DNA from: Planctomycetota bacterium
GTDB lineage: Bacteria > Planctomycetota > B15-G4
DNA length: 64,000 nucleotides
Assembly (NCBI GenBank): GCA_052387675.1
Contig: JBQTIY010000007.1
Coordinates: 257,544 to 321,543, forward strand
Reading direction: 5' to 3'
A program made the translations under genes and the position numbers. The notes under the pieces are model-generated. The model was not told where the DNA came from. It did no database searches and saw only the letters and a program-made list of their open reading frames with translations. Shown here one piece after another: positions 17,268 to 63,733 of this stretch; positions within the stretch are counted from its first letter, which is position 1; each line of letters begins with the position of its first letter.

Positions 17268-19974
17268 TCAGGGCTGCGTGCCGCGCACCGCATTGCTGGC
17301 CGAGAGGCCGCTCTCCAGCGCCGGATCGGTGATCCAGTACTGCATGTAGACCGCAAAGCCTGGCGGCAGTCCGGCCGGCCACGCGGCCCAGCCCAGCGGC
17401 ATGCTGCCGTCGGGCAAGGTGACGAGAGCGATGGAGAGCGTCCACGGCACCGGGACGAGCACGCCGCCCTTGAAGGGCACATTGCCCGCCACGAAGCCCG
17501 CGAAGAGCAAGGCCAGCGCCGACGGCCGGGCGCGCGAGAGCGTGAGCGTGCCGACGCTGTCCACTTCCAGGCTTCCGGCGCCGACGAGGCGCGGCAACAA
17601 GCCGTTGCTGCCCAGCTTGGCGAAGCCCAAGTTGGCCCAGGGCGGCAGTTCGAGGCAGGTCACGAAGCCTTCGCCCGCATCGCCGGGCAGTCCGGCGTAG
17701 CTCGGATCGGCCGCGCCCTGCGTCGTGGCCCAGCCGCTCGAGGTCGTGCGGCCGACGATCTGCGCCGCGCCGTGCGCGTCGACGGATAGCGCGAGCGGTG
17801 TGTCGTCGCCGGCGGCGCCGAGATAGCTGGCGTACCGACGCGCGGTGCCCTCGGGCGACCAGCGCGCGAGGTAGCCGTCCTCACCGCCTGCAAGCGAGGC
17901 CTGATAGGCACCGCTCGTCACCGGCAGAGCGGCCGAGCGCGTTGCGGCCAGCACGGTGACGGCGCCCAAAGTGTCAACGGCCAGGCCCTGCACGGCCTCG
18001 TCACCAGCGCCGCCCAGGAAGCTCGACCACATCAGGCTGCTTCCGTCGGCGGAGAGCCGCGTGACGAATCCGTCCGCGGCGCCGCCGGGGGCCGGCGGCC
18101 GGGTGGCGGCCCGCGGGGGGGAGTGCCGACCCACCACCCCCCCCCCCACAAACACAAAACCCCCCCGCCCCGCCCCGGTCGCCCCCCCACTCGGGGATCC
18201 CCCCGTCGCCGGAGCCCCCCCTTACCCCCCCCCCCGCGCCGCCGCCGGCGGCCGGCTGCAGAGTGCCGGCCGTCGTGGGGAAGTCCGTACCGACGACGCG
18301 CCCGCCGACAAGCACATCACCGCCCGGCGCGAGCGCCAAGCAGCGTGCTTCCTCGACACCGGCGCCGCCCAGCAGCGTGGACCACTCCAAGTTCGCGCCA
18401 TCGGCCGAGGCGCGGCACACGAAGGCGTCGGTTTCATCCGCCGAGGGGCCGCCATAGCTCTCGTCGTAGGCGCCGGCCGTCGTGGGGAAATCAACGCTGC
18501 CCGTCAGGCCCGCGACATGCGCACGGCCGGCGGCATCCGCGACCAGGGCCTGCGGCTCATCGCGCAGCACGCCGCCCAGCAACGTGGACCAGGGCAGCGC
18601 GCTCCCATCGAGCGAGAGCTTGGAGAGAAAGCCATCGGGCGTGAAGAAGATGGAGTTGAAGCTGGTATCGAAGGCGCCGGCCGTCGCGGGAAAGGGCAGC
18701 AAGCCGTTGGAGTAGGTGCGCCCGGTGACGAGCACGCCGCTGGGCGTGAGGGCCAGCGCGGCCGCACGATCTTCCTTGTCGCCGCCGAGGAAGGTACTCC
18801 AGCTCAACGCGCCCGTTGAAGTGAAGCGCGCGACGAAGCCGTCGACGCCGCCGCGCGCGGTGGGCTGATAGCTGCCGGCCGTCGCCGGAAAATCCGCCGA
18901 GTTCGACCAGCCACAGACAAAGACCGAGCCGGCGGCATCCACGGCCACGCCGCTCGCGCCCTCCCCCACAAAGAAGCCGCTGTCGGTGCCGCCCAGATAG
19001 GTCACCCACTGCGTGCTGCCCGGCAAGCTCTCGCCGCCCAGGCCGCTGTTCACGAGCAGGCGCGCCACGAAGGCATCGCCGTATCCGAGCAGTCCACGCT
19101 GCACGCTGCCGGGTGTCGCCGGGAAGTTGCCGGAAGTGGTCAGCCCCGCGACGACGAGCGCGCCATCACCGGCATCGGCCACGGCCAGGATTTCGTCGCG
19201 CAGCGAGCCGCCGAGATAGCTCTGGTACTGGAGCACGGGATCCACGACGAGGGGCAGCGCGAGGTGGCGCCCCGGCGCCTCGAAGCCGACGCGTCCGCCG
19301 CCGAGCAGGCGGAAGTGCGCGGTGACCGGCACCCGCGCGCCGCCGGGCAGTTCTTGCCAAGCCGCAGGAATGTGCTGCAGCAGGCGGCCCGTGCCGAGCT
19401 CGGCGACGAGACGGCCCTGCTCATCGATGTTCAGCGACTCGGCGCCGTGCAGTTGCAGCGCGACCACATCTAGCGGTGTGCCCGCCGGCAGCAGCAGGTC
19501 GTACTCGAGCGCGCCGTGCAGGCGCACGGCGGCACCGCCCGGCAGCCCGCTCCATTGCAGACTCGAGTAGGCCGGCACGCCAAGCAGCCAGCCCTCGGCC
19601 GATGAACCGCGCAGAAAGTTCAGGTGGCCGAGCGGCTCGCCGACCGCGTGGACACGCGCCTGCCCGCTGGCGAAGCCCGGCGCGCCGCTCGCCGTCGAGG
19701 AGGACGCTCCGTCGAAGCGCAACTCCACGCTGCCGCGCTCATGGCCCAGCACCAGGCCCGCATCGGTGGCAAAGACCGACAGCGCGCCCTGCTCGGCGAC
19801 AAAACGAGCCCGCCCATCGGCTTGCCCACGGTTCTCGGCGAAGGCCTCGAGCAGGGTCTGCGCCTCGGCCTCCGGCTGGGCCACGACACCACTCACCACG
19901 AGCAGCAACGCCGGCAGGAGCCAGCGACGAAGGGACCATGGGCCGGAATTGGGGCGGTGCATGACAGCGGGCAT
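17268..19974 (-). pseudogene. Secreted SBBP (beta-propeller) repeat protein, reading frame broken at ~18113-18240 (ORFs 18001..19974 and 17268..18155)
   Basis: It has a signal peptide (LLPALLLVVSGVVAQPEAEAQ). Repeats of the type DAFV.R......L.WST.LGG continue seamlessly in both ORFs (DGFVARFTSTGALSWSTFLGG and DGFVTRLSADGSSLMWSSFLGG). The frames differ across a block of C/G homopolymer runs. Confidence 0.7.
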
Positions 19975-35459: not shown

Positions 35460-36611
35460 ATGAAGACCCTGCTCGCCTGCGCCTTCGCTGTCTCGATGCT
35501 CGCCACCACCGCATTCGGTCAGGTGCGCTATCGCGCCGACCTTGACGGCTTCCAGGAAGCACCCGTGGCCGTGCCCGGCACGCTCGCCGGCGGCTGGGGC
35601 ACCTTCGATCTCAACACGACCACCAATCGCATCACCTACTCGGTGCGCACCTGGGGCCTCACCGCCACCATGGCGCACGTGCACCTCGGCGCGCCGGGCG
35701 TGGCCGGCGGCATCGTCTTCGCACTCAGTGGCGGCCCGGTGAACTTCTCCGGCCTCTCGCCCGTGCTCACGGCCGCTCAGTTGTCCGCGCTGGAGGCGGG
35801 CAACCTCTACGTGAACGTGCACACCGCAGCGAACCCCGCCGGTGAAATCCGCGGACAGCTCTACCTGAACCCGCGTGTCTTCGGCACGGTGCTGGATCAG
35901 GCGCAGGAAACGCCGGTCCCGCTGCCCTCGGCCGCCACCGGCACCGGCAACTTCTCGCTCAACGCGGGCAACACGCTCAATTACTCCGTGAACACGGCGG
36001 GACTCTCCGGCCCAGCCTTCGCTGCGCACTTGCACGGCGCTCTCTTCGGCGTGCCAGGCGGCATCGAGGTCAACATGACGCCCGGCCCCACCTCCTGGAA
36101 CGGCACCTCGCTCGCTCTGTCACTGGGACAGATCGAGGAGCTGCAGAACAAAGGCTGGTACGCCAACGTGCACACCGCGTTGAACCCCGGCGGTGAGATC
36201 CGCGGCCAACTCGTGCCGAGCGGCATTCCCTACGGCCCGCCGAGCGACCCGCCCACCGGCACGATCACGCTGCGCTCCACCGGCGCGCCCACCGACCTCG
36301 GCGGCGGCGGCGTCTTCAACGTAGACATCACCAAGGCCAAGCCCTTCGGCCTCGGCTACATCTTTGTTGGCCTCGCCCCGGACTCGCTGATGTTCAAGGA
36401 CGAGCCGATGCTGGTGAACCTCGGCACCGTCTTCAGCACGGTCTTGGTTCCCTTCAACGGTGTCGGCGAACTGCACGGCAGCGCGCTGACGCCGCCGCTG
36501 AGCGGCTCGGTGGACCTCTGCCTGCAGGTCTTCGGTCTCGATGTGACCGCGCCGAACGGCAAGTTCAACGTGAGCAACGGACTCATCATCCCGTTCTCGC
36601 ACTTCCCGTAA
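35460..36611 (+). CDS. Secreted protein with two CHRD domains + the recurrent C-terminal module
   Basis: The signal peptide is MKTLLACAFAVSMLATTAFGQ. CHRD signatures are AHVHLGAPGVAGGIVFAL...NVHTAANPAGEIRGQL and AHLHGALFGVPGG...NVHTALNPGGEIRGQL. For the C-terminal ~100 aa, see findings. Confidence 0.8.
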   Translation: MKTLLACAFAVSMLATTAFGQVRYRADLDGFQEAPVAVPGTLAGGWGTFDLNTTTNRITYSVRTWGLTATMAHVHLGAPGVAGGIVFALSGGPVNFSGLSPVLTAAQLSALEAGNLYVNVHTAANPAGEIRGQLYLNPRVFGTVLDQAQETPVPLPSAATGTGNFSLNAGNTLNYSVNTAGLSGPAFAAHLHGALFGVPGGIEVNMTPGPTSWNGTSLALSLGQIEELQNKGWYANVHTALNPGGEIRGQLVPSGIPYGPPSDPPTGTITLRSTGAPTDLGGGGVFNVDITKAKPFGLGYIFVGLAPDSLMFKDEPMLVNLGTVFSTVLVPFNGVGELHGSALTPPLSGSVDLCLQVFGLDVTAPNGKFNVSNGLIIPFSHFP

Positions 36612-43927: not shown

Positions 43928-44365
43928 ATGCGCACTGAGGCGGCTCGGCTCGACGAACGCTACCGCCGCGTCTGGAACGACGCGCAGCTTCCACGCCTCG
44001 CCGACTTCGACGCGTCCAATGATCTGCACCTCGAAGAGCTGGCCGACTTGCTCTTGCAGCGCGTGCAAGATCTGCGCGATGCGGAAGCTTTCGCACTGCT
44101 CATCGAACTCACCCGGGCACGGCTCGAGCGGATGGCGGCTCGGCTCGTGAACCGGCTCCCGGCGCGGGCGCCCGCCCCGCAGCACTTGGTCCAGGCGGTC
44201 TTGCGCCGCCTGTGGCGCGAGTTGCGCGGCCGGCGGGCACCCGCTCTGGGTTTTCTGCTCCTCAGCCACGGCCTCATGGAGCAAGAACTCCGCCGGCTGC
44301 CGACTTCTCCGCAATTCTCGCGGGCCCCAACTTTGCCGAATTCCGACAGCAAAGCCCGGTTCTGA
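43928..44365 (+). CDS. Sigma-70 region-2-only paralog of the two downstream ECF-like sigma factors
   Basis: 145 aa. DAEAFALLIELTRARLERMAARLV...HLVQAVLRRLWRELR aligns with DSQAFALLVELTQPRLSRLARLIT...DLVAGFFARIFVDTR of 46843.. and with DSAVFTQLFELAHERLLRSARSIT of 44374... There is no region 4 HTH. It could be a gene remnant. Confidence 0.45.
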   Translation: MRTEAARLDERYRRVWNDAQLPRLADFDASNDLHLEELADLLLQRVQDLRDAEAFALLIELTRARLERMAARLVNRLPARAPAPQHLVQAVLRRLWRELRGRRAPALGFLLLSHGLMEQELRRLPTSPQFSRAPTLPNSDSKARF

Positions 44366-44373
44366 GCCAGAGC

Positions 44374-46071
44374 ATGGTCCGGTTCTCCACATTGCTCTCC
44401 CGGGCTCGGTTACATTCCCGCCCCTCCGCCGTCCGGCACCTTGCCCCATGCGGGGTCAACCAACGGGCGGTTGGTGGGCGGGCCAGGAGAGAGCTTTTGG
44501 ACGAGGTCGGGCCGCCGGGCAACCAGTCCCTGCCGCGTCACGCGGCGCGGCTCCCACTTGCCCTCGCCGAAGAGGCGCAGTTCGACACCGACGCGCGGCT
44601 GTTGCTTGAACGTTTTTGGCGCGACGGCGACAGCGCAGTCTTCACGCAACTTTTCGAACTCGCTCACGAACGCCTGCTGCGTTCGGCGCGCAGCATCACC
44701 CGCCGCATCGCACCGCAGCTCGAGCCCGAAGACCTCGTGGCAAACTTCATGGCGCGCCTCTTCACTGACTTGCGCCGGCGCACGGAGTTCGCCACGCAGC
44801 AGAGCGAGACCGCCTCGGTGCGCAGCCTGCTGGCGCTGGCGCACACCTCCATGCGCAACGACGCACTCGACCAGTTGCGCATGCTGCGCCGCGCCGCCGC
44901 GAATGCGCGCGTGTTCCAGGCCACGTGCGATGAACCGATCGATCCCTCCTGCGAAGTCCTGGCCACGGAAGTCGAAGAGCGCCTCGCCTGCCTCGATGCC
45001 GAAGTGCTGCGGCTCTGCCAGGAAAGTTTTGCGGCGCTCGAGCCGCGCGACCAGCAAGTGCTCGTCGCGCGCGAACTCGTGGGCCTCTCCTACGAGCGTG
45101 TCGCCGCGCTGCTGCAGCGCTCGCCGGGCCAAGTGGGCATGGTCATTCGGCGCGCGCGCCTGCACTTGTTGCAGGGCCTCGGCCAGCGCCTGCCGCGCCT
45201 GCGCAGCCCGGACCGCGAGGAGCAGTTGCTGCTGAACAGCCTGCAGTCCGGACTCGACCTGGAACAGGGCCCGCGGCATGTGCCGGCCCTGCTGCAGCGC
45301 ATGCTCGAACGCTCGGCCGCAGCGGCCCGGCGCACACTGGCCGACCTGATTTATGAGATGGCCAAGGCCTGCCTCGTGGAGGCTCCGGGCTTCTCAGAGC
45401 GCATGCTCATCCAGCGCGAGCCGCGCGACGGCCGCGAAGTGGGCCTGGACTTGCAGCGCCTGGCCAGCCGGCTGAGTGGTCAACGCGAGGCCGGAAGCGG
45501 CGCAACGGACGGCCTCGGTCTGGGGTCCATCGCCAGCACGCGCCCCGCCCCGGCCACCGCGCTGGACGATGCACGCGCCTGTCTCGACAAGCTCCACGAA
45601 GTGGAAGGCCCCTCCGGACGCCAGCAGGTGGCGCTGGCGCTTTGCTACATCCACGCCGGCCAGCCGGCCGTGGCCGAGCCGCTGCTGCGCGCCCTGCTCG
45701 AGCGTCCGCTGCCCGTGATCACGCGGCAAAACGCCGCGCGCAACCTCACGCTGTCGCTGCTGCGCCAAGAGCGCCACGCCGAGGCCTTGGACTTCGCCGA
45801 GGCCGGGGCGGACGAGTGGCCCGACGATCCAGTGCGTGTGATGAACGTGGCCTATGCCGCCGCACGCCTCGGGGAGCGCGAGCGCTTCGTCCGCGCGGCC
45901 GCACGGCTCGCCGCTCTGCACGCTGCCGAGCCCTCGCCGCGCGTGCGGGCTTGGCTGCGCGACGACCTGCCGCGCCTGGCACGCGAGTGTCGGCTCGAGA
46001 TGGCGCTCCCGAGTTCTTCCGATCCGCAGCCCGAACTGCAGAAACCCGACCAGCAGAAAGTAGCCTCCTGA
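44374..46071 (+). CDS. ECF-like sigma factor with a ~300-aa C-terminal (TPR-like helical) extension
   Basis: Sigma2 is AVFTQLFELAHERLLRSARSITRRIAPQLEPEDLVANFMARLF. Sigma4 is LEPRDQQVLVARELVGLSYERVAALLQRSPGQVGMVIRRARLHL. A helical repeat-like tail follows. The start is uncertain; 44374 is the first ATG after the upstream stop. Confidence 0.65.
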   Translation: MVRFSTLLSRARLHSRPSAVRHLAPCGVNQRAVGGRARRELLDEVGPPGNQSLPRHAARLPLALAEEAQFDTDARLLLERFWRDGDSAVFTQLFELAHERLLRSARSITRRIAPQLEPEDLVANFMARLFTDLRRRTEFATQQSETASVRSLLALAHTSMRNDALDQLRMLRRAAANARVFQATCDEPIDPSCEVLATEVEERLACLDAEVLRLCQESFAALEPRDQQVLVARELVGLSYERVAALLQRSPGQVGMVIRRARLHLLQGLGQRLPRLRSPDREEQLLLNSLQSGLDLEQGPRHVPALLQRMLERSAAAARRTLADLIYEMAKACLVEAPGFSERMLIQREPRDGREVGLDLQRLASRLSGQREAGSGATDGLGLGSIASTRPAPATALDDARACLDKLHEVEGPSGRQQVALALCYIHAGQPAVAEPLLRALLERPLPVITRQNAARNLTLSLLRQERHAEALDFAEAGADEWPDDPVRVMNVAYAAARLGERERFVRAAARLAALHAAEPSPRVRAWLRDDLPRLARECRLEMALPSSSDPQPELQKPDQQKVAS

Positions 46072-46760
46072 TGAGACTGACCCGCCTGCATGCCCGAGCC
46101 GCGTCGGTACTGCGACTCAGCGCGGCACTTCTGATTCTCGCCGGACTCGTCGCTGCCCAGTCCGGGTCGCGCGTCGGCGGCGTCCAGGCCGGCACCGATG
46201 GAGTGGGCGGCATTGAGAAGACGGCCGGCAACACGCCCAGCGCGCTGCCCGCCGGCAGCACGGCCGGTCCGACCAATACACCGCCGCCGGCCTTGGCCCA
46301 CCTCCGCACGCCGCTGGGCCACCAGTCCACGGCCTGGTTCAACCTCGGTCACAGCCTGCCGGGCAGCAGCTCGCCCGTCCTGCTTGGGCTCCTCAACCCT
46401 GAGTCCGAAGCCGACTCTCGGGAGAGCCTCCCGCGACTCGTCGACGGCGCAACCGGGACAACGTTACACACCACCTTGCATGTCTCGGGCGCGCTGCCCG
46501 GCGCACCGGCGCTGCTGATCATCGGCACGCAGGCGGCAAACCTGCCCTTCCGTGGCGGAGTCCTGGCTCCCTTGCCGCAGATCGTGCTCGGCGGTCTTGC
46601 CGCGGACAGCGCCGGAGAAATCCGCCTCAGCGGCCCGCTGCCCCTGCAGCTCGCGCCGGAGGCGCAGTTCGTGGTCCAGTTCTGGCTCGCCGATCCGGGC
46701 GCACCGCAGGGCTTGGCCGCGAGCAATGCTCTCGTGTTGCTGGCGGGCCACCCGCGCTGA
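46071..46760 (+). CDS. Small secreted protein consisting mostly of the recurrent C-terminal module
   Basis: The ATG at 46071 shares one base with the sigma gene stop (TGATG). The signal/anchor is LRLSAALLILAGLVAAQSG. The C-terminus is ALLIIGTQAANLPFRGGVLAPLP...DSAGEIRLSGPLPLQLAPEAQFVVQFWLADPGAPQGLAASNAL. Confidence 0.6.
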   Translation: MRLTRLHARAASVLRLSAALLILAGLVAAQSGSRVGGVQAGTDGVGGIEKTAGNTPSALPAGSTAGPTNTPPPALAHLRTPLGHQSTAWFNLGHSLPGSSSPVLLGLLNPESEADSRESLPRLVDGATGTTLHTTLHVSGALPGAPALLIIGTQAANLPFRGGVLAPLPQIVLGGLAADSAGEIRLSGPLPLQLAPEAQFVVQFWLADPGAPQGLAASNALVLLAGHPR

Positions 46761-46842
46761 GCGGTAGGCTCGCCGCCCGAACACAGCCGGGATTTGCGGT
46801 GCGCCGGGCAGGCCGCCGCGCAACGCAGGACTTCACGCAGAC

Positions 46843-47637
46843 ATGGCCGGTCCGTCCGACGAACTCGTCGATCGCATCGCCGCGTTGCTCGGCCTCGCCG
46901 CCGACAGCGAGGACCCGAGCGTCGGCCGCCCCGATCTCTCGCGCGACGAGCATGTGGATGAGCTCGCCGGCCGGCTGCTGCAGCACTTCCGCGAACGCGA
47001 CGACTCGCAGGCCTTCGCCCTGCTGGTCGAGCTGACTCAGCCGCGCCTCTCGCGTCTGGCGCGGCTCATCACGCGCCAGATCGGCCTGGCCGTGGATTCC
47101 GAGGATCTCGTGGCCGGCTTCTTCGCGCGCATCTTTGTGGACACGCGCAAGCGGCAGCCCTACGTGGCGCGTTTTGTGGGCCTCGCGCGCACCGCGATGC
47201 GCAACGATGCCTTGGGCCAGCTCCGCCAGTACAAGCGCGCGGCCGCGCGCCACGAGATCTGGGGGCGGCGGCGCCTCTCGGAGCCGGGCAGCGATCCCGC
47301 GCATTCGGCCGAGCAAGCGGAGCAAGACGCCCGCCTGCCGCGCCTCGGCACGCTCTTCCTCGCCGTCGTCGGGCAGTGCTTCCACGAACTGGCCGAGCGC
47401 GAGCGCCGCGTGCTGCTGGCGCGCGAAGTGGACAAGCTCAGTTACGACGGCATCGCCGAAGACATGTCCCTGCCGCGCGGTCAGGTCGGCATGATCGTGA
47501 AGCGCGCGCGCGAGCGGCTGCGCCTGCGCATCGACGCGACCTTCTCAAGGCTCGGCCAGCCGCATCCACTGCTGGAGGAGCCACGCGTCGCCGTAGAATC
47601 CCCCTCTCGCCATCACGAGGCTCGCAGCGCTCCATGA
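46843..47637 (+). CDS. ECF-type RNA polymerase sigma factor (divergent)
   Basis: Sigma2 is QAFALLVELTQPRLSRLARLITRQIGLAVDSEDLVAGFFARIF. Sigma4 is LAERERRVLLAREVDKLSYDGIAEDMSLPRGQVGMIVKRARERL. Confidence 0.75.
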   Translation: MAGPSDELVDRIAALLGLAADSEDPSVGRPDLSRDEHVDELAGRLLQHFRERDDSQAFALLVELTQPRLSRLARLITRQIGLAVDSEDLVAGFFARIFVDTRKRQPYVARFVGLARTAMRNDALGQLRQYKRAAARHEIWGRRRLSEPGSDPAHSAEQAEQDARLPRLGTLFLAVVGQCFHELAERERRVLLAREVDKLSYDGIAEDMSLPRGQVGMIVKRARERLRLRIDATFSRLGQPHPLLEEPRVAVESPSRHHEARSAP

Positions 47638-59752: not shown

Positions 59753-60472
59753 CTAGCAGTCGGGCTCGACGCACCAGAGCGTCAGCCCCACGATATGCAG
59801 GTTCACCGCATTGCCGAACTGCAGCGGCGGATTCGTGCTGCCGAAGCCGGTTGTCAGGCCAACCTCCTTGCGCGCTGCCTGAAAGTGCAGCGTGAGTCCG
59901 GTGAGCTGCGGCTCGAAGGGCACGGTGAAGTCGAAGGCCGCGCCCTCGGAGAAGTTGAGCGAGAAGGCCGTGCCGACCATGAAGAAGGGATCGGCCAGCA
60001 GGAAGCTGCCGCGCAACGGCGGCAACGGCACGAAGCCGGGCCCGAGCGAGACAAAGAGGGCGTGCTGAGCGAGCCCGCCCGGTCCCGAGCGCAGGCGCAC
60101 CGGGCAACCGAGGCCGCCGGTGCCGCAGATTTCGAGCGTGGCGGGCGGGGGCTCAGCGATCTCGAAGACCGTGAAGAACGGACACTCAAGCACGCTCTGC
60201 ACGGCGCTGATCTTGACGAGCTTGTCCACGTACTGCGCCAGATCGATCTCGCCGCCCAGCAAGTAGAGCGTGGTGCCGCCGGCCTCCAGGATGAACTCCG
60301 GCGGTGCGCAGATCGCGAGCGAGTCGGCGGCTTCGTTCAGCGAGTACGGACGCACGATGCCGGTCACGCCGATGGGCTGCGGCTCAGCGAAGGGCGGCTC
60401 GATCACGATCTGAGCCGTGAGCGGCGTGGCTATCGCCGTGAGCAGAAGAGCAGTGCACAGGGTCTTGATCAT
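59753..60472 (-). CDS. Secreted hypothetical protein carrying a divergent copy of the recurrent C-terminal module
   Basis: The signal peptide is MIKTLCTALLLTAIATPLTAQ. The C-terminal region is ALFVSLGPGFVPLPPLRGSFLLADPFFMVG...EGAAFDFTVPFEPQLTGLTLHFQA. Confidence 0.6.
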   Translation of the reverse strand: MIKTLCTALLLTAIATPLTAQIVIEPPFAEPQPIGVTGIVRPYSLNEAADSLAICAPPEFILEAGGTTLYLLGGEIDLAQYVDKLVKISAVQSVLECPFFTVFEIAEPPPATLEICGTGGLGCPVRLRSGPGGLAQHALFVSLGPGFVPLPPLRGSFLLADPFFMVGTAFSLNFSEGAAFDFTVPFEPQLTGLTLHFQAARKEVGLTTGFGSTNPPLQFGNAVNLHIVGLTLWCVEPDC

Positions 60473-61696: not shown

Positions 61697-63733
61697 ATGT
61701 CTCCTCGCCATCTCACGTTCGGCCGACGCCCCGCCTCGCTGGTGGCGAGCTTGGCTCTCGTGGCGAACCCAAGTCTGGTGCTCGTGGCGATGATGGCGCT
61801 CGCGCCGCACGCCGCCGCGCAAGCTGACGGACAGCGCATCGCGCCCGAGCTGCGCGCTGCTATGGCGGCTGCCGCCCCGGGCGAACTCCTGCCGGCCTAT
61901 CTCGTGATGCAGTCGCAGCTCGATCTCGACACACTCGAGACGGCCGTGCGTCTGGCCGGCCCGCAGGCGCGGCGCACGACGGCGGCGCGTGCGACGGTCG
62001 TCGCACAGAGCCTGCGCGCCCACTCCGACGAGACACAAGTAGCGGCGCGACAGATCCTGCAGCAGGCGGTGAGTGTCGGCGCAGCGAGTGGCGTGCGCAC
62101 GCTGTGGATCGGCAACGCGCTCGTCTTCGCGGCCACTCCGGAGGTCATCGCGGAGTTGGTCGCGCTGCCGGGCGTTGCGCGTGTGGTTCTGCGTGTGACG
62201 CTCGAGGCCTCGGCCTACCAAGACGCCGTCGCACCACTTCCCGCTCCAGCCGTCCTGCCGGCTCCGGCGGCGGCGCCCCTCGCCGCTCCGGCCGCCTTGC
62301 CCTTCGCCGGCGGCCCGGCTCCCGAACCCAACCTCGTCGGCCACCAGGCGCCGGCGCTCTGGGATGTGGGCTTCGACGGCAGCGGCGTGCTGCTCGGCAG
62401 CATCGACTCCGGCGTTTGGTGGACGCATCCCGACCTGGTGAACCGCATCTGGGCCAATGCGGACGAGATCGCGGGCAACGGCCTCGACGATGACGGCAAC
62501 GGTCTCATCGATGACCTGCGCGGCTGGGACTTCCTCAGTGACAGCGCCGATGTCACGGCCGCCAACTTCGACACGCACGGCACCAAGTCGGTGGGCATCG
62601 CGGTCGGCGACGGCAGCAGCGGCGTGCGCCGCACCGGCATGGCGCCCGGCGCCTCGCTGCTCATCTGCGAAGTGCTCGATGAGCCGAGCTACTGGCTGGC
62701 GCAGCAGTACTGCCTCGACGAGGGCGTCGCGGTGATCACGTCGAGCTACAGCTACAAGTGGCTCGACTCGCCGAAGCCCGACTACGCCATGCACCGCCAA
62801 GTCTGCGACGCATTGCTCGCAGCCGGCATCGTGCAAGCCAACTCGATCGGCAATCAGGGCAACCTCACGGCCTTCTATCCCGTGCCCTTCAACATCGCCG
62901 CGCCGGGCAACTGCCCCTCGCCCTTCGTGCATCCGCAGGGCGCGAGCGGCGGACGCTCTGCGATTCTGGCCTGCGGCGGCATCGATCTGGCGAACGACAG
63001 CCTCTACATCCCGTCGGGGCGCGGACCGGCCGCCTGGGAAGACGTCACGCTCTACCAGCCCAGCTACCCGTGGCCTCAGAATCCCGCCTGGTGGGACTAC
63101 CCCTACGGCGGCTTCGGCGGCGGCGGGCCCGGACTGCTCAAGCCCGACCTCGCCGGCTACACCGTAAACATCCAGACCACCACCATCGGCCCCGGCTTCT
63201 CCACTTTCAGCGGCACGTCGGCGGCGACGCCGCACCTGGGCGGCGCGCTCTGCCTGCTGCGGCAAGTCCAGCCGGCGGCGGAGCCGCGGCATCTCGCGGC
63301 GGCGCTGGAGTTCACGGCCGCCGACCTCGGCGCGCCCGGCAAGGACGGCGATTTTGGCTCGGGCAAGATCCAGGTCTTCGACGCGGCGCGGCGGCTGCGC
63401 GTGCTCGGCCGTTTCGACGACATCACGCCCTCACTGGGCCAGCCGATCCTGCTCGAACTTTTCGGCCCGCCGAGCGCCACCGTCTACGCCTACCTGGGCC
63501 TGGCCATCGCCGACTCGCCGAGCCACTTCAATCTCGTGCCGCCCTTCCTGCCGCTCGCCGCCTTCGGCTTGGATGGCACCGGCGAGGCCAGCATCCCGCT
63601 GGTTATTCCCAGCGATCCGCTCTATGTCGGCCTGAACGTGTGGCTGCAGTTTGGCGCAGCGAATGATGATCCGGCCAACTGGGGTCCGGGCCCGATGCTC
63701 TCGGTGCCCGAGGGGCTTACGATCGGGACTTAG
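61697..63733 (+). CDS. Secreted subtilisin-like (S8) serine peptidase with N-terminal propeptide and the recurrent C-terminal module
   Basis: It has a signal peptide. The catalytic triad motifs are GSIDSGVWWTHPDL (Asp), HGTKSVGIAVG (His) and GTSAATPHLGGA (Ser). A DDDGNGLIDD insert is present. For the C-terminal ~100 aa, see findings. Confidence 0.85.
   Translation: MSPRHLTFGRRPASLVASLALVANPSLVLVAMMALAPHAAAQADGQRIAPELRAAMAAAAPGELLPAYLVMQSQLDLDTLETAVRLAGPQARRTTAARATVVAQSLRAHSDETQVAARQILQQAVSVGAASGVRTLWIGNALVFAATPEVIAELVALPGVARVVLRVTLEASAYQDAVAPLPAPAVLPAPAAAPLAAPAALPFAGGPAPEPNLVGHQAPALWDVGFDGSGVLLGSIDSGVWWTHPDLVNRIWANADEIAGNGLDDDGNGLIDDLRGWDFLSDSADVTAANFDTHGTKSVGIAVGDGSSGVRRTGMAPGASLLICEVLDEPSYWLAQQYCLDEGVAVITSSYSYKWLDSPKPDYAMHRQVCDALLAAGIVQANSIGNQGNLTAFYPVPFNIAAPGNCPSPFVHPQGASGGRSAILACGGIDLANDSLYIPSGRGPAAWEDVTLYQPSYPWPQNPAWWDYPYGGFGGGGPGLLKPDLAGYTVNIQTTTIGPGFSTFSGTSAATPHLGGALCLLRQVQPAAEPRHLAAALEFTAADLGAPGKDGDFGSGKIQVFDAARRLRVLGRFDDITPSLGQPILLELFGPPSATVYAYLGLAIADSPSHFNLVPPFLPLAAFGLDGTGEASIPLVIPSDPLYVGLNVWLQFGAANDDPANWGPGPMLSVPEGLTIGT

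Follow-up and report, generated by a model that had tools for sequence, protein, structure and literature searches.

The C-terminal domain (CTD) of the type 9 secretion system (T9SS), in its type A (TIGR04183/PF18962) and type B (TIGR04131/PF13585 CHU_C) forms, is a beta-sandwich of domain size that forms the very end of Sec-exported proteins with diverse passengers, present in one copy per protein, in dozens per genome and in one phylum-level lineage. Type I dockerins (PF00404) are also single, usually C-terminal and found on many secreted proteins of one organism. The PEP-CTERM, LPXTG, GlyGly-CTERM and MYXO-CTERM signals are C-terminal and lineage-specific, with many paralogues and diverse passengers, and the PPC domain (PF04151) is a C-terminal beta-sandwich of secreted proteins, proteases included. 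Here we describe a protein module that resembles each of them in these respects and is encoded in a 64-kb stretch of DNA (64,000 nucleotides, the window) from a Planctomycetota metagenome-assembled genome (MAG). A preliminary description had proposed that five unrelated secreted proteins of the window, which we call A to E, end in one unnamed module of ~100 aa, a candidate sorting or anchoring domain. We propose that the module probably docks or sorts secreted proteins to one common cell-surface partner.

The five C-terminal sequences lie where the preliminary description placed them (Table 1), and all five proteins have a signal-peptide-like N-terminus. Pfam named the N-terminal parts of the window proteins (DUF7948 and SBBP in A, two CHRD domains in B, Peptidase_S8 in E), while the C-terminal ~120 residues of A to E were recognised by neither Pfam nor NCBIfam when the full proteins were searched at E<=1. 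The source annotations of carrier proteins are likewise hypothetical or taken from the N-terminal domain. The modules of A and C are significantly alike (40% identity over 104 aa, E 3e-15 by BLASTP; see Table 1 for their matches to the family hidden Markov model, HMM), and aligned with a metagenomic sequence, P0002, they define a module of ~121 positions that runs from a W-x-D/N-L-G start to an ASNA-x-x-x-T-P end. The length first given was too short: the module comprises ~120-125 aa, the initial W-x-D/N-L-G strand having been missed. In A the module reads WANLG...NVPFKGGVLVPVP...MQYWITDP...SASNAVRGTQP and reaches the last residue of the protein, and in C, where 16 aa are inserted behind the first strands, it ends with ASNALVLLAGHPR. 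Protein C consists of a signal peptide, a ~55-aa low-complexity Gly/Thr/Pro linker and the module, with no other domain and zero matches in Pfam or NCBIfam; a 229-aa homologue, P0001, is 93% identical and has the same start. Gene A is present as two overlapping open reading frames (ORFs). It is split where ~120 bp (18115-18235) contain six homopolymer stretches, each of 7-11 G or C, and the break resembles an artefact of sequencing or assembly (poly-G) more than a true frameshift.

The size of the family became apparent when the three-sequence profile (A, C and P0002) was run exhaustively against 1.84 billion representative proteins. This search was required, as word-indexed searches had retrieved only 2 homologues for each of the C and E modules. 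The profile matched 5,713 protein clusters at E<=1e-3 and 3,697 at E<=1e-10, which, judged by sequence similarity, are homologous and make up a family of 5,700 or more clusters at 50% identity. In all of the 150 best matches the module is C-terminal and in single copy, and in 145 of them its end is the last residue of the protein; that residue is a proline in 124/150, and the last two are T-P in 83/150. The same was seen at 79 genomic loci of ~6 kb each, where ~108 of 116 modules end 0-2 residues before the stop codon. At least two module genes, often adjoining, were present at 29 of these loci. The claim that the module is always terminal holds for almost all of these proteins and does not extend to D, in which 12 residues follow the module-like domain. 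Paralogous modules are 40-50% identical and share the signature W-x-D-L-G ... PFKGG ... Q-x-W-x-x-D ... ASNAL-x-x-T-P. About 25 positions are invariant or nearly so, including W1, L4-G5, G10, P16, P55-F56-K57-G58-G59, V62-P63, G78, P88, Q100, W102, D105, G111 and A114-S115-N116, the lysine of PFKGG being conserved but not invariant.

We found no known family that accounts for the module. At E<=10, neither Pfam nor NCBIfam returned a meaningful match to the isolated modules or to the family consensus, no Pfam family covered the module region in any of 83 full-length members, the family profile had no match among PDB sequences, and a literature search found no description of the module. As first suggested, it is neither a known Ig-like family nor a named sorting domain. 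For the A module, AlphaFold2 with a 60-sequence alignment modelled an all-beta sandwich of 8-9 strands with a predicted local distance difference test score (pLDDT) of 91 and a predicted template modelling (TM) score of 0.84, confidence being lower around the PFKGG loop; on the strength of this model the module is predicted to fold autonomously. Foldseek returned zero PDB matches at E<=1e-3. The best matches (TM score 0.4-0.53, E >=6e-3, identity 10-17%) are generic Ig-like domains, among them the beta-GRP N-terminal domain, ester-bond adhesin domains, reeler, FN3 and MG domains, and at the top stands the beta-1,3-glucan-binding N-terminal domain of beta-GRP/GNBP3 (3aqx; TM score 0.45-0.53, E 6e-3). 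Because ester-bond adhesin domains were among these matches, we considered an intramolecular isopeptide or ester bond. It was rejected, since some members have L, Y, Q, E, A, H or F in place of the PFKGG lysine and since position 2 (Thr) is variable.

Not all five window proteins belong to the family in the same sense. The family profile (~120 positions, C-terminal) clearly includes A and C, includes B weakly and does not include D and E at the family level. B, which carries the module in register at its C-terminus, keeps FK, LQ.F.LD and VSNGL, and hhalign aligned it with the main family at Prob 81-84%, E ~1e-5 and a score of 35.8. The C-terminal domain of E is without W-x-D-L-G, PFKGG and ASNAL; a profile of E with P0151 and P0152 aligned with the main family in register (Prob 53-60%, E ~1e-4, score 30.4). 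For D, a 21-sequence family profile gave Prob 11-13%, E 2e-3 and a score of 23.7 against the main family, and Prob 87%, E 3.6e-6 against the E family. Applied to six-frame ORFs of the window, the 150-member family HMM scored E at an E-value of 1.9 and did not match D, and an iterative HMM search that covered the window, the loci and the hits settled on 262 canonical domains without recruiting B, D or E. The membership of these three therefore rests on profile-profile scores, their controls and bridging sequences. All three score above 100 column shuffles (12.3 +/- 2.4, maximum 20.9) and above natural beta-rich controls, namely 40 segments just upstream of modules (maximum 19.7); among other natural controls, the N-terminal sandwich of D itself scored 7.8 and CHRD domains 11-14. 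Bridging sequences are found in other MAGs, where C-terminal modules at loci L041 and L026 match the main HMM at ~1e-18 and the D-family HMM at 27 and 24 bits (E 8.5e-7 and 5.6e-6 in 4,105 ORFs). In addition, residues 113-226 of D have an AlphaFold2 strand pattern parallel to that of the module. By these profile comparisons, A and C are canonical members, B is a divergent member, and D and E are superfamily-level relatives without the PFKGG and ASNAL hallmarks. The proposal of one module in five proteins, with one shared motif pattern, was therefore borne out for A, C and the divergent B, whose VSNGL is kept, and had to be loosened for D and E.

Two further groups were seen beside these. The D family (P0153-P0173) comprises conserved secreted proteins of ~220-240 aa that consist of two tandem beta-sandwiches, terminate in C-x-x-P-D-C and have seven invariant or near-invariant cysteines, five of them invariant. 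It has zero Pfam matches, its four members with an organism label are all Planctomycetota, and the AlphaFold2 model of D has a pLDDT of 86.6. A synteny test of the D-E link showed that D and E homologues are not neighbours elsewhere. A variant module subfamily, with the motifs D-L-G-F-G-G-P-G-G ... G-G-G-G-P ... A-L-S-N-A ... L-P, occurs at three loci (Table 1) and matches the main HMM at E 1e-11 to 1e-19; together with the L041/L026 type it indicates that several subtypes of the superfamily exist inside single genomes.

The proteins that carry the module differ widely. By crude regular-expression tests of 110 full-length members, 93 have a signal-peptide-like N-terminus and only 4 have a lipobox. 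Among 83 full-length members, Pfam identified FG-GAP (24) and the DUF7948/SBBP architecture of gene A (10) as partners, together with PKD, beta-helix, RCC1, Chlamydia PMP repeats, C25 and reprolysin peptidases, CBM96, LamG, the PA-IL lectin and an endonuclease/phosphatase domain. Grafting onto unrelated domains, as first described, thus applies to the diverse passengers of these members and not to D, a conserved stand-alone family. No linker or cleavage motif beyond [GS]-P-W is conserved before the module. One architecture only was seen with the module at the N-terminus: in orthologues from four MAGs, a signal peptide is followed by the module and then by a metallo-beta-lactamase (MBL)-fold domain with an HxHxDH motif. 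Some proteins, such as C and P0008, consist of a signal peptide and the module only. The N-terminal variant and the module-only proteins indicate that the module is an autonomous domain that works at either end or alone.

To follow the family across genomes, one genome per species (185,579 species) was scanned with a single 9-residue motif, [AV]PFKGGVLV, taken from an 11-sequence alignment, which gave 120 confirmed copies of the module. The best 80 of these 120 copies come from 14 MAGs, 12 of them labelled Planctomycetota or Phycisphaerales, and among the same 80 copies the four richest MAGs have 16, 12, 10 and 9 loci. The module is thus confined almost wholly to a few Planctomycetota MAGs with many paralogues each. 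The window has a GC content of 69-73%, and we regard the module as a lineage-specific domain of one uncultured, high-GC Planctomycetota lineage. The two MAGs labelled otherwise, both with canonical modules, are JBLIMM01 (Pseudohongiellaceae; L028, L049, L067, L069 and L074), which has them at five or more loci, and JBGTSH01 (Polyangiaceae; L064). The Pseudohongiellaceae MAG has an MBL-fusion orthologue that is otherwise found only in Planctomycetota MAGs, so mis-binning is suspected, and the off-phylum contigs are probably mis-binned or mislabelled.

Terminal position, single copy, signal peptides, diverse passengers, paralogue expansion and lineage restriction point, taken together, to a shared targeting domain and not to a generic Ig-like repeat. 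We hypothesize, tentatively and at a little short of an even chance, that the module docks or anchors many exported proteins to one common partner in the envelope or at the surface. Sec-exported proteins would carry the module as their last domain; after export it would fold by itself and bind its passenger non-covalently to this partner on the envelope or surface, for which a glycan or polymer of the surface is a candidate, as is a scaffold or receptor protein. Dozens of different proteins would in this way be retained or displayed via one shared address, by analogy with dockerins, the S-layer homology (SLH) domain and the attachment role of the T9SS CTD. The ~25 positions conserved across paralogues would reflect the single shared partner, B, D and E would be progressively more diverged versions of the same fold, and the terminal proline might, as a speculation, shield the exposed C-terminus from carboxypeptidases. 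We favor docking because conservation among the paralogues is high and because both an N-terminal variant and module-only proteins exist. Several points weigh against it. No binding partner, scaffold or ligand was identified, and neighbor clustering in the 79 loci gave no recurrent non-module neighbor or candidate machinery, the clusters being shadow ORFs and abundant families (Ser/Thr kinase-TPR, sulfatase). The genome copy numbers rest on one exact motif, the genomes are all MAGs, whose per-genome counts and two off-phylum labels may be binning errors, and the position of the module was examined only in the best 150 of the 5,713 matches. Finally, the strict end position and the terminal proline are equally expected of an export signal recognised by a machinery.

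An export or sorting signal of the T9SS-CTD kind would be read, as a folded module, by a dedicated outer-membrane translocon or sortase-like enzyme that carries the passenger through the outer membrane or onto it and perhaps cleaves the module off. Its exact C-terminal position with the conserved -T-P end, single copy, diverse passengers, signal peptides, dozens of paralogues per genome and lineage restriction all suit such a signal, and in Haft-type analyses features of this sort reportedly marked earlier C-terminal sorting domains (T9SS CTD, PEP-CTERM). We nevertheless consider it unlikely. Neither the type A nor the type B CTD model matches the module, no solved CTD appears among the top 50 Foldseek matches, and to our knowledge the T9SS occurs only in Bacteroidota and their relatives; the module paralogues are also conserved beyond what is usual for T9SS CTDs. 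No upstream cleavage motif is conserved, and candidate machinery, including any co-occurring transporter or processing enzyme, was not found in the window or the loci. Moreover, one orthologous family has the module at the N-terminus, before an MBL domain, and other proteins consist of the module only, both of which fit a binding or docking domain better than an obligate secretion tag. The module might also be the address tag of a so far undescribed, Planctomycetota-specific sorting or surface-display system with a dedicated receptor, translocon or attachment enzyme, that is, an independently evolved functional analogue of the T9SS CTD system outside Bacteroidota, which we regard as doubtful. 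The sorting or anchoring role of the preliminary description agreed with every in silico prediction that was run, with machinery and a conserved cleavage motif not found; it is a role that we infer.

Were the module instead a lectin-like or carbohydrate-binding module (CBM)-like domain, it would direct its passengers to a substrate or surface outside the cell, such as polysaccharide of algae or particles, and not to the cell's own envelope. The top Foldseek match is a beta-glucan-binding domain (3aqx), the aromatics W1, F56, W87 and W102 are conserved, and the module is functional at either protein end and also exists in stand-alone copies, as expected of ligand binding. These fold matches are, however, weak and generic, with none at E<=1e-3, and CBMs are commonly internal or tandem, whereas the module is single and in >93% terminal. 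Its partners are mostly propellers, adhesin-like repeats and proteases and not glycoside hydrolases or lyases, and this scarcity of carbohydrate-active enzymes argues against substrate targeting, which makes the substrate hypothesis quite improbable. Least probable of all, in our judgment, is a stable Ig-like capping or spacer domain with no shared targeting function. Recombination between paralogous genes for surface proteins would have spread it, together with its stop codon, as a 3'-terminal cassette, and the terminal position would be a by-product of the spreading. The clustering of module genes (29/79 loci with at least two), the generic Ig-like fold class and the failure to find a partner are in keeping with a cassette. 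Against it, ~25 positions, loop motifs included, are near-invariant across thousands of clusters and unlike passengers, which argues for selection on a specific shared interaction, and module-only proteins have nothing to cap. Docking to one common partner remains our preferred explanation.

The window also contains housekeeping genes (PEPCK, ThiC, aspartate kinase and aspartate-semialdehyde dehydrogenase) and genes for secreted proteins, and no recognisable secretion machinery is encoded in it. Gene C lies between two genes for sigma-70 region-4 proteins (44212-47637 in all); the stop codon of the upstream gene and the start codon of C share 1 nt (TGATG), and the order sigma, C, sigma is also present in a 93%-identical relative, L083. 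As a module-only secreted protein flanked by two extracytoplasmic function (ECF)-like sigma factors, C may have a signalling role. Between the CHRD-module gene and a glycogen-phosphorylase-like gene are two neighboring M14 zinc-carboxypeptidase genes, which we remark on because the conserved terminal proline of the module would resist carboxypeptidases. Two further window proteins are unusual in architecture and unrelated to the module: in one, an AMP-binding (adenylating) enzyme is fused to a haem-oxygenase-like iron redox domain, and the other contains many WD40 repeats.

Table 1. Positions of the module proteins, their modules and other features (window positions, except where a locus is given)
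Feature	Position	Strand	Remarks
Gene A	17268..19974	-	signal peptide, DUF7948, SBBP beta-propeller repeats, module (Pfam: DUF7948, SBBP)
A, N-terminal ORF	18001-19974	-	overlaps the tail ORF
A, tail ORF	17268-18155	-	annotated at NCBI as a separate 254-aa protein (P0003); identical NCBI entry ACT4PU_06880
A module, 123 aa	17271..17639	-	canonical; 150-member family HMM E 4.8e-44
Protein B	35460-36611	+	two CHRD domains (Pfam), C-terminal module
B module	36294..36608	+	divergent; family HMM E 3.6e-4, HMM positions 27-121
Protein C, 229 aa	46071..46760	+	translation; signal peptide, linker, module
C module, aa 89-229	46335..46757	+	canonical; family HMM E 8.7e-31
Protein D, 239 aa	59753-60472	-	two tandem beta-sandwiches; identical NCBI entry ACT4PU_07055 (Planctomycetota MAG)
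D second beta-sandwich	59792..60151	-	remote, module-like; 12 more residues after it, ending C-x-x-P-D-C
S8 protease E	61697-63733	+	Pfam Peptidase_S8
E C-terminal domain	63422..63730	+	remote, module-like; hhalign profile match
MBL-fusion orthologue	L033:2815-4206		N-terminal module
MBL-fusion orthologue	L028:1588-2922		N-terminal module
MBL-fusion orthologue	L058:2869-4194		N-terminal module
MBL-fusion orthologue	L032:2836-4197		N-terminal module
Variant module subfamily	L079:4481-6304		
Variant module subfamily	L040:3009-4772		
Variant module subfamily	L002:4431-6368		
Sigma-70 region-4 protein, 619 aa	44212..46071	+	Pfam Sigma70_r4_2; long C-terminal extension
Second sigma-70 region-4 protein	46843-47637		3' of C
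Two M14 zinc-carboxypeptidases, 593 and 748 aa	38042-42066	-	
AMP-binding/haem-oxygenase-like fusion, 818 aa	3047-5503	-	
WD40-repeat protein, 752 aa	51800-54058	-	

The cell envelope of Planctomycetota is unusual, and little is understood of the way in which these bacteria display their surface proteins and retain them. The module marks thousands of secreted proteins, and roughly one in ten genes of the window, so that it offers a catalogue of the probable surface or secreted proteome of an uncultured lineage. As a confidently modelled domain of 120 aa, it is also a handle for finding the partner or machinery. Should there be a dedicated system, it would add a new case to the domain-based sorting of proteins in diderms. 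At a minimum the family merits a curated model, since the annotations of its carriers now reflect only the N-terminal parts or read hypothetical.

The comparison with described systems shows where the module stands. It is longer than the T9SS CTD, with ~123 aa and 8-9 strands, its motifs differ, and it has an N-terminal variant. As the preliminary description had judged, it does not fit the CTD consensus: the type A and type B HMMs gave no match with full proteins at E<=1 or with modules and the consensus at E<=10. Solved CTDs, which are 7-stranded Ig-like sandwiches, were absent from the top 50 Foldseek PDB matches of the module model, itself a beta-sandwich. No T9SS component was present among the genes scanned in the window and the 6-kb loci, and Planctomycetota are not known to possess a T9SS. 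The dockerin differs in being a ~70-aa, Ca-binding, duplicated EF-hand-like loop-helix domain, whereas the module is all-beta; PF00404 did not match the module, and no cohesin-like partner was identified. The tripartite signals are motifs of 25-40 aa with a transmembrane helix and a basic tail, whereas the module is a soluble beta-sandwich of 120 aa. Its C-terminus, ...AASNAL-x-x-T-T-P, is a predicted beta-strand followed by proline and has no hydrophobic helix, which agrees with the first observation that a terminal transmembrane helix is lacking, and none of the NCBIfam CTERM models match it. The PPC domain is shorter (~70-90 aa) and occurs mainly on peptidases, whereas the partners of the module are far broader, and PF04151 gave no HMM match. 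With the N-terminal domain of beta-GRP/GNBP3 (3aqx) and the Ig-like domains of ester-bond adhesins (8fha, 8f9l) the module has the generic Ig-like beta-sandwich class in common, but the Thr/Gln ester-bond pair of 8fha and 8f9l is not conserved in it. Generic Ig-like families (PKD, Big, FN3, CARDB, FlgD_ig and similar) likewise had no HMM match to the module, and unlike such repeats, which stand at arbitrary positions or in tandem, it is a single C-terminal copy. The module is a new, large and uncurated domain family of a known general kind.

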